Source: Escherichia coli (GTDB lineage: Bacteria > Pseudomonadota > Gammaproteobacteria > Enterobacterales > Enterobacteriaceae). From it: DNA of 64,000 bases. The DNA lies in assembly GCF_044324875.1 (NCBI RefSeq), contig NZ_CP172185.1. One strand, written 5' to 3'. The notes under the pieces were generated by a model that saw only the letters and a list, made by a program, of their open reading frames with translations, did not search any database and was not told the origin of the DNA. A program made the translations under genes and the position numbers. The number at the start of each line of letters is the position of its first letter. The stretch's first letter is position 1. Shown here one piece after another: positions 47,864-49,283 of this stretch.

Positions 47864-48106
47864 TTAGTAACGCCAACGGTCATAGCGCTGATATTTCGGC
47901 ACTTTTGGTGCTTTAATCGCCTTAATAACCCACACTACCGCAATCGCCAATAACAGCCACGGCAGCAACTTAATCATCAATGCCAGCATACCGCCGAGGA
48001 ACATAATGGCCGTCGCCACAACCAGCGCAGCGATAATACCCAGCAACGAAACGCCGGTGACCATCAGCATGACAAAAAAGCCAATCACAAAAAGTAGTTC
48101 CAGCAT
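47864..48106 (-). CDS. pspG: Phage-shock protein G (small membrane protein)
   Basis: 80-aa hydrophobic protein (MLELLFVIGFFVMLMVTG...); the ORF track's upstream extension is probably not translated. Confidence 0.85.
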   Translation of the reverse strand: MLELLFVIGFFVMLMVTGVSLLGIIAALVVATAIMFLGGMLALMIKLLPWLLLAIAVVWVIKAIKAPKVPKYQRYDRWRY

Positions 48107-48149
48107 GATGCTCTCCCAAAGATGAAATCTCTTGCTGGCATTACAAGAA

Positions 48150-48166
48150 TCATGCCAAAAATAATC
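48150..48166 (-). promoter_or_regulatory. Candidate sigma54 promoter of pspG
   Basis: Reverse strand reads TGGCATgattcTTGTAA (GG-N10-TG, -24/-12-like), about 45 nt upstream of the pspG start. Confidence 0.45.
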
Positions 48167-48239
48167 TGTTGATTTAACAGCAAAACGCCCCGCGACGGTG
48201 CGCAGGGCGTGGTGAATTTGACTATTTTTTGGTGAAAAG

Positions 48240-49283
48240 TTAACGCTTATCCGCCACCAGTTTGAGCGCGTGTTCCAGCACATTAATGTCTGCACCCGCT
48301 TTATGGGCATTTTCACTTAAATAACGCCGCCACTGCCGCGCGCCAGGAATACCCTGGAACAAGCCCAGCATATGCCGGGTAATATGGCCAAGATACGTCC
48401 CCTGGCTGAGTTCACGCTCAATGTACGGATACATGGCGCGCACTACCGCCACCGGATCGGCATCGGTATCCGAGGAACCAAAGATCTCTCGGTCTACCGC
48501 CGCCAGAATACCCGGATTCTGATACGCTTCGCGCCCGACCATCACGCCATCCATATGTTGCAAATGCGCTTTAGCCTCTTCCAGCGACTTGATACCACCG
48601 TTAATCGACATTGTCAGATGCGGAAAGTCACGCTTCAGTTGATACACACGCGGATAATCGAGCGGCGGGATTTCACGGTTTTCTTTCGGGCTTAACCCCG
48701 AAAGCCAGGCTTTACGTGCGTGGATGATGAACATCTCACACTCGCCTTTGCCGGAAACGGTGTTGATGAAATCGCAGAGAAATTCATAGCTGTCCTGATC
48801 ATCGATGCCAATACGCGTTTTCACCGTCACCGGAATCGACACCACATCGCGCATCGCTTTCACGCAGTCGGCAACCAGCTGCGCATTACCCATCAGACAC
48901 GCCCCAAACATGCCGTTCTGCACCCGGTCAGACGGGCAGCCGACATTCAGGTTGATCTCATCATATCCGCGCGCTTCTGCCAGCTTTGCACACTGCGCCA
49001 GCGCTGCCGGATCGCTACCGCCCAGTTGCAATGCTACCGGATGTTCTTCTTCACTGTGCGCCAGGTAATCACCTTTACCGTGAATAATCGCCCCTGTAGT
49101 CACCATTTCGGTATACAGCAACGTATTGCGGGAAAGCAGACGCAAGAAATAGCGGCAATGTCTGTCCGTCCAGTCGAGCATTGGTGCAACACTAAACCGA
49201 CCACTCCAGTGAACGTCAGTTTTTTCAGGCATTGCGCTGGTTTGGTTGATTTTTTGCATTTCAGAATTACCGTGCATTTTCAA
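48240..49283 (-). CDS. dusA: tRNA-dihydrouridine synthase A
   Basis: 347-aa ORF with a TIM-barrel Dus fold; start may be 2 codons in. Confidence 0.9.

Follow-up and report, generated by a model that had tools for sequence, protein, structure and literature searches.

Promoters read by sigma-54 RNA polymerase carry the consensus TGGCAC-N5-TTGCW, with the GG and GC doublets exactly 10 bp apart, and their transcripts start about 12 nt downstream of the -12 doublet. Lloyd et al., writing in J Biol Chem in 2004, are said to have described pspG as dependent on sigma-54, PspF and IHF and as subject to negative control by PspA. In the literature, secretin stress and proton-motive-force stress induce the psp promoters, PspA mediates their repression, and they have been found to be IHF-dependent (PMC3709507). 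The UASs of the pspA and pspG promoters are both bound by PspF; pspG, with one UAS, is induced about 20-fold, pspA, with two UASs, 100-fold, and when the pspG promoter is deleted, PspF dynamics change and pspA shows a higher basal expression (Mehta et al. 2013, PMC3709507). When pspG probes were combined in vitro with sigma-54, PspF(1-275) and dATP, open complexes and abortive transcripts were produced (PMC4641871). With respect to chromosomal occupancy, Bonocora et al. 2015 (PMC4591121) recovered TTGGCATGATTCTTGTA upstream of K-12 pspG as the sigma-54 ChIP-seq site OS40, with a FAT (fold above threshold) of 15, and marked it as having experimental confirmation in EcoCyc. Expression of pspG increased when sigma-54 was overexpressed, a response confined to five of the genes that have intergenic sites upstream (PMC4591121). 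In Salmonella, the corresponding pspG element TGGCATGATTTTTGTAAG showed a 39-fold enrichment in sigma-54 ChIP-chip (Samuels et al. 2013, PMC3844500).

The DNA analyzed here (the window, a single stretch of 64,000 nucleotides) is E. coli chromosome from the dnaB-qorA-pspG-dusA region. On the minus strand the order is dusA, pspG and then the convergent qorA and dnaB, which is the reverse of the K-12 orientation. The 701 bases around the pspG promoter matched 5,425 of 5,426 complete E. coli genomes, and the genes annotated there are pspG and dusA. Over 47700..48400, identity of at least 99% was observed in only 14 of 5,427 E. coli records, the remainder being 95-99% identical, and the differences from K-12 were mostly synonymous and clustered in the pspG codons for LPWLLLAIAV (about 47935..47957); the scarcity of matches of at least 99% and this synonymous cluster point to a minority lineage at the pspG locus. 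Since the 17-mer that had been flagged in a preliminary description of this DNA is already published as the sigma-54/PspF promoter of pspG, its identification is an ordinary finding: the promoter is known and well characterized, and no new promoter is described here. What is carried forward from the analysis is restricted to the comparative details and the connection to the small RNA PspH.

Core promoter and start of pspG

The sequence TGGCATGATTCTTGTAA is present in a single copy in the window, at 48157..48141 on the minus strand. The core promoter 17-mer TTGGCATGATTCTTGTA occupies 48158..48142 on the same strand (-27..-11 relative to the predicted start at 48131) and has the form TGGCAT-N5-TTGTA, in which GG at 48156-48155 (-25/-24) and GT at 48144-48143 (-13/-12) are exactly 10 bp apart. 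The doublet spacing is therefore that of the consensus, with T replacing C so that the -12 doublet is GT rather than GC. The motif is intergenic, lies in sense orientation and ends 35 nt upstream of the pspG ATG at 48106. The start at 48131 (minus strand) is a rule-based prediction which follows the footnotes of Bonocora et al. 2015 (PMC4591121), where the start is placed 19 bp from the motif centre and the '25' given there is the distance to the ATG; applied here, the rule predicts a start 19 nt downstream of the motif centre and a 5' UTR of 25 nt.

To score the element, a PSSM was trained on the intergenic-sense sites in the sigma-54 ChIP-seq set of Bonocora et al. 2015 (PMC4591121); the pspG site was held out, which left 41. 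The sigma-54 matrix scan, a check which the preliminary description had proposed, placed the pspG site at the top of the window, with 17.3 bits and rank 1 of 127,968 positions, and only 10 of the 41 real sites outscored it in a leave-one-out comparison, which puts it in the upper quartile. Scores of this kind still leave a functionless chance match to be considered. The loose pattern TGGC-N7-TTGNW stands at chance level and is uninformative, with 8 matches in the window versus 6.6 expected; among random 64-kb windows, 19.6% had a PSSM site that scored as well, and the other window hits of 12-14.5 bits are absent from the published ChIP sites. When only the sense orientation within the 133-nt intergenic region is counted, about 2e-4 equally good hits are expected (arithmetic from the random-window rate). 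The motif alone is unconvincing, and its function is accepted because it stands in sense 35 nt from the ATG, is conserved at all orthologous loci sampled and coincides with published ChIP occupancy.

This conservation was measured at 80 PspG loci from species-representative genomes, ranging from Escherichia, Citrobacter, Salmonella, Enterobacter and Klebsiella to Yersinia, Rahnella, Biostraticola and Brenneria. At 80 of the 80 loci the best sense PSSM hit within 300 nt upstream of pspG was a TGGCAY-N5-TTGNW site. The orthologous sites had a median of 16.7 bits and reached at least 15 bits at 79 loci, whereas the two controls, the opposite strand and the next 600 nt upstream, had medians of 1.9 and 4.2 bits respectively, and the site persisted even in genera whose flanks have completely diverged. 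Together with ChIP occupancy in two species (PMC4591121, PMC3844500) and activity in vitro (PMC4641871), this weighs heavily against coincidence; the conservation and the ChIP data refute the chance-match reading, to which we attach practically no probability. The -24/-12-like element that the preliminary description had proposed upstream of pspG was borne out, the 17-mer being the published site OS40 and present at every locus of the sample. The PspF regulon has two promoters, and we regard it as almost certain that 48158..48142 is one of them, the enhancer-dependent, PspF-activated sigma-54 promoter of pspG; the pspG case shows that a genuine sigma-54 promoter can be recognized from raw sequence.

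The distance from the site to the ATG was 34-46 nt at 73 of the 80 loci, and longer distances were found in Salmonella arizonae/diarizonae, Yersinia, Rahnella, Biostraticola and Brenneria. In S. enterica arizonae/diarizonae the 5' UTR is about 33 nt longer and has a GC-rich, hairpin-like insert (…GACCCGGTAAGCGCAGTACCGCCGGGC…) between the 17-mer and the ATG, and in Yersinia the motif lies 190 nt from the pspG ATG. The sole locus with a damaged -24 element was that of Citrobacter werkmanii NBRC 105721, which reads TTGTCATG versus TTGGCATG and scores 10.2 bits; this may be a true promoter-down variant or an assembly error.

With respect to the -12 region, the pentamer TTGTA was found at 75 of the 80 pspG loci, and the non-consensus T at -12 is maintained across about 80 species, like the other promoter elements. 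GT at -12 is present in both PspF-dependent promoters (position 48143 for pspG, position 2527 of the pspA locus) of E. coli and Salmonella, whereas among the intergenic-sense ChIP sites of E. coli it is rare, with 3 cases in 42. To judge by its distribution, TTGTA with GT at -12 looks like a regulon-specific signature.

Elsewhere in the window, the second-ranked PSSM hit, GTGGCATAAAAGATGCA at 7950..7966 on the plus strand, is the known fdhF promoter (site OS41 of Bonocora, which was in the training set). FdhF is encoded downstream of it by an open reading frame at 8018..8437 followed by one at 8486..10165, broken by the in-frame TGA (selenocysteine) at 8435-8437. Six further hits (ranks 3-8, 12.2-14.5 bits), which are absent from the published ChIP tables, were treated as background.

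The gene served by the promoter is a Psp effector gene, its coding sequence (47864..48106, minus strand; RefSeq annotation) specifying an 80-aa product plus stop which matches Pfam PF09583 with an E value of 3.4e-25. The true ATG is at 48106, in agreement with the 243-nt gene annotated in K-12, and 4 nt ahead of it a Shine-Dalgarno sequence, GGGAGAG, can be read at 48111..48117 on the minus strand; GGGAGAG or GGAG before the pspG ATG is conserved in the stacked orthologous regions. An ATG occupies the aligned first codon in 79 of the 80 PspG orthologues, and the remaining match begins at residue 8. A longer frame, 48316..47864, is open from a GTG start and had been listed as a 150-aa ORF; were this the true gene, the sigma-54 motif would fall inside coding sequence. 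As the preliminary description had held, only the last 80 codons look like PspG: the Phageshock_PspG family (PF09583) covers these alone and a Pfam search gave no match to the 70-aa N-terminal extension, which spans the promoter, the dusA terminator and, in another frame, the 3' end of dusA. With K-12 and RefSeq both giving 80 aa and the orthologues beginning at the same ATG behind a conserved Shine-Dalgarno sequence, the 150-aa ORF was rejected as a real gene, and the probability that it is the true one is negligible. We therefore take pspG as the 80-aa gene starting at 48106.

Candidate IHF site and PspF enhancer, and the dusA terminator

The preliminary description had also suggested that AT-rich DNA further upstream could hold IHF and PspF sites. 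Candidates for both sites were found; the upstream region is not simply AT-rich, as a GC-rich hairpin of dusA (48210..48185) lies between them. Read from the sequence, a putative IHF core, AATCAACAGATTA, is located at 48162..48174 on the minus strand (about -43..-31). It matches WATCAANNNNTTR perfectly, has the -24 element immediately next to it and would stand between the enhancer and the core promoter. The pattern TCAR-N4-TTR was found no more than 45 nt upstream of the 17-mer at 63 of the 80 loci, compared with 0.4% of 3,675 control stretches. Its offset was 14-15 nt at 58 loci and 24-25 nt at 5 outlying loci, and the shift between these groups amounts to one helical turn, the IHF site being displaced only by whole helical turns. 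The IHF-like core of Brenneria is enclosed by the arms of a perfect inverted repeat of 10 bp, some 10-40 nt upstream of the 17-mer. The arms read TCGCTGATAA…TTATCAGCGA in one species, and the second species has TCACTGATAA…TTATCAGTGA, which is a compensated change; in the Brenneria upstream regions with that inverted repeat, no GC-rich dusA terminator of the enterobacterial type was visible.

The candidate PspF enhancer (UAS), ACTTTTCACCAAAAAATAGTCAAATTCACCACGC, is a 34-bp block at 48207..48240 on the minus strand (about -109..-76) which is conserved in the stack of loci anchored on the 17-mer. Its first base is also the final one of the dusA stop codon, TAA at 48242..48240 on the minus strand (-111..-109 relative to the predicted start at 48131), and the block carries direct repeats of TTCACCA at 48236..48230 and 48216..48210, 20 bp apart. 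An enhancer PSSM was built from the blocks of pspG orthologues alone and scanned against the unlinked 3-kb K-12 puuE-pspF-pspA locus. The top two hits, one on each strand, fell at locus positions 2410-2450, about -129..-89 of pspA, a position which we take to be that of the PspF footprint on pspA. They scored 8.8 and 7.3 bits versus -16.6 for the next hit, a gap of 24 bits, over a background of -78 +/- 17. By this comparison the pspG block appears to be a UAS resembling that of pspA.

The repeat pattern TTCRCYA-N13-TTCRCYA had a single match in the 64-kb window, where 0.02 were expected, and a single match in the pspA locus. Of the 80 orthologous loci, 53 had one copy each, whose place and strand never varied; because the pattern was itself read off the pspG and pspA promoters, its independent evidence consists of this uniqueness and of the recurrence in other species only. 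As both repeats are conserved, the pspG enhancer may be bipartite, with two repeat units as in pspA, versus the one UAS given for it in the literature.

Upstream on the same strand lies dusA (48240..49283, minus strand; ORF list and RefSeq annotation), and a DusA homologue was found upstream of pspG at 80 of 81 loci, the exception being a short contig. A terminator scan identified an intrinsic terminator at 48181..48210 on the minus strand (-79..-50), in which a 10-bp GC-rich stem at 48210..48185 is followed by UUUU. The hairpin has a predicted free energy of -19.1 kcal/mol and a z score of -2.7, and compensatory double changes were observed in 8 of its 10 stem pairs among 60 distinct sequences, a covariation which implies that it is maintained at the RNA level. 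We read it as the terminator of dusA. A search of 47400..48500 against Rfam returned nothing credible, the only hits being sub-threshold ctRNA matches on the terminator hairpin. The terminator is positioned between the PspF and IHF sites, so that any polymerase completing dusA has first crossed the PspF site, which is upstream of the terminator. In addition to the known promoter, the locus houses the dusA terminator inside the predicted enhancer-promoter loop.

This arrangement bears on whether pspG might be expressed mainly by read-through from dusA, or from an unrecognized sigma-70 promoter, with the bound sigma-54 site contributing little. In all species examined, dusA is the immediate same-strand neighbour upstream of pspG, its terminator has a tail of four U only, which makes some read-through plausible, and many sigma-54 ChIP sites are unproductive as promoters (Bonocora et al. 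2015, PMC4591121). The two genes are nevertheless separated by a strong terminator maintained by covariation, and no sigma-70-like promoter was detected for pspG: a consensus scan of 47600..48500 found no -35/-10 pair on the pspG strand, its two matches both being on the opposite strand. In the literature, rpoN or pspF mutants are reported to lose the stress induction of pspG while their dusA mRNA stays the same. Expression of pspG is also raised by sigma-54 overexpression (PMC4591121) and is PspF-dependent (PMC3709507). We consider expression mainly from such other sources very improbable, and retain the PspF-activated sigma-54 promoter as the source of pspG transcription.

The pspG transcript and PspH

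Downstream of pspG, the K-12 annotation places the small RNA PspH (b4758) in the pspG 3' UTR; its sequence is 100% identical here, at 47697..47807 on the minus strand. The terminator scan found a bidirectional hairpin at 47706..47728, acting on both strands and common to pspG/PspH and the convergent qorA, with the conserved sequence GGGCTTCC...GGAAGCCC. Past the pspG stop, the scan detected no terminator-like site on the pspG strand other than this hairpin (47728..47706), which lies beyond PspH. As no terminator stands between pspG and PspH, the sigma-54 transcript of pspG should carry the PspH sequence. PspH showed 80-97% nucleotide identity across Enterobacteriaceae loci, with the invariant blocks AAATCTGTCACTAT and ATTCATCG-GCTGTACCCTACATACAGC, and a core of 19-20 nt, GCTGTACCCTACATACAGCC, was still perfect in Brenneria. 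A conserved ATAGG is present 8-12 nt upstream of the annotated PspH 5' end and could be a weak -10 element or a processing site.

PspH has been described as an Hfq-dependent sponge of Spot 42 which overlaps the pspG 3' UTR and possibly has its own promoter (Melamed et al. 2016), and no link between PspH and PspF or the Psp response was found in the accessible literature. We tentatively raise the possibility, which we think somewhat unlikely, that the pspG transcripts induced by PspF carry PspH, so that envelope stress raises the level of PspH or of PspH-bearing mRNA, Spot 42 is sponged and its carbon-metabolism targets are de-repressed. If true, the phage-shock response would be linked to central metabolism via PspH and Spot 42. 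Independent of this possibility, and in addition to the known promoter, the conserved PspH is physically part of the pspG transcription unit.

Taken as a whole, the elements suggest the following sequence of events. Sigma-54 RNA polymerase would form an inactive closed complex on TTGGCATGATTCTTGTA (48158..48142), and a PspF hexamer would occupy the upstream block at 48240..48207. A bend imposed by IHF at 48174..48162 would bring PspF to the polymerase, whereupon ATP hydrolysis by PspF would open the promoter and transcription would start near 48131. The predicted transcript would comprise the 25-nt leader, the message for the 80-aa membrane protein PspG and the PspH sequence, and would end at the hairpin 47728..47706. 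When envelope stress is lacking, PspF is kept inactive by PspA. Others have demonstrated, on an identical sequence, occupancy by sigma-54, binding of PspF and, in vitro, open complexes and abortive synthesis with sigma-54 and PspF; the present analysis supplies the exact location, the PSSM rank, the conservation of each element and the likeness of the enhancer block to the pspA region. In this scheme we infer the exact start, precisely which bases PspF and IHF contact, and the geometry of looping.

Comparison with named promoters

The pspG (yjbO) promoter of K-12 is the same locus, with an identical 17-mer and identical IHF consensus bases, enhancer repeats, terminator and coding start. Three intergenic substitutions distinguish the window from MG1655, at 48225 in the spacer of the enhancer repeats, at 48168 in the N4 of the IHF core and at 48121 in the 5' UTR, and none of these falls at a consensus base. 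The pspG promoter of Salmonella Typhimurium LT2 (STM4244), TGGCATGATTTTTGTAAG, has the same -24 and -12 elements and differs in one base of the spacer (PMC3844500).

A comparison with the pspA promoter, which the preliminary description had also recommended, showed agreement in all three parts of the promoter. Like pspG, pspA has a TGGCAY-N5-TTGTA core with the unusual T at -12, an IHF-like TCAA-N4 element 14-16 nt upstream of the 17-mer, and an enhancer of the form TTCRCYA-N13-TTCRCYA. The two promoters differ in how these parts are spaced: in pspA, the distance from the enhancer is longer by about 13 bp to the core promoter and by about 11 bp, or roughly one helical turn, to the IHF element. 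They differ also in their surroundings: the pspA enhancer serves in addition as the operator of pspF, which is divergent from pspA, while that of pspG borders on the end of dusA and has the terminator of this gene within the predicted loop.
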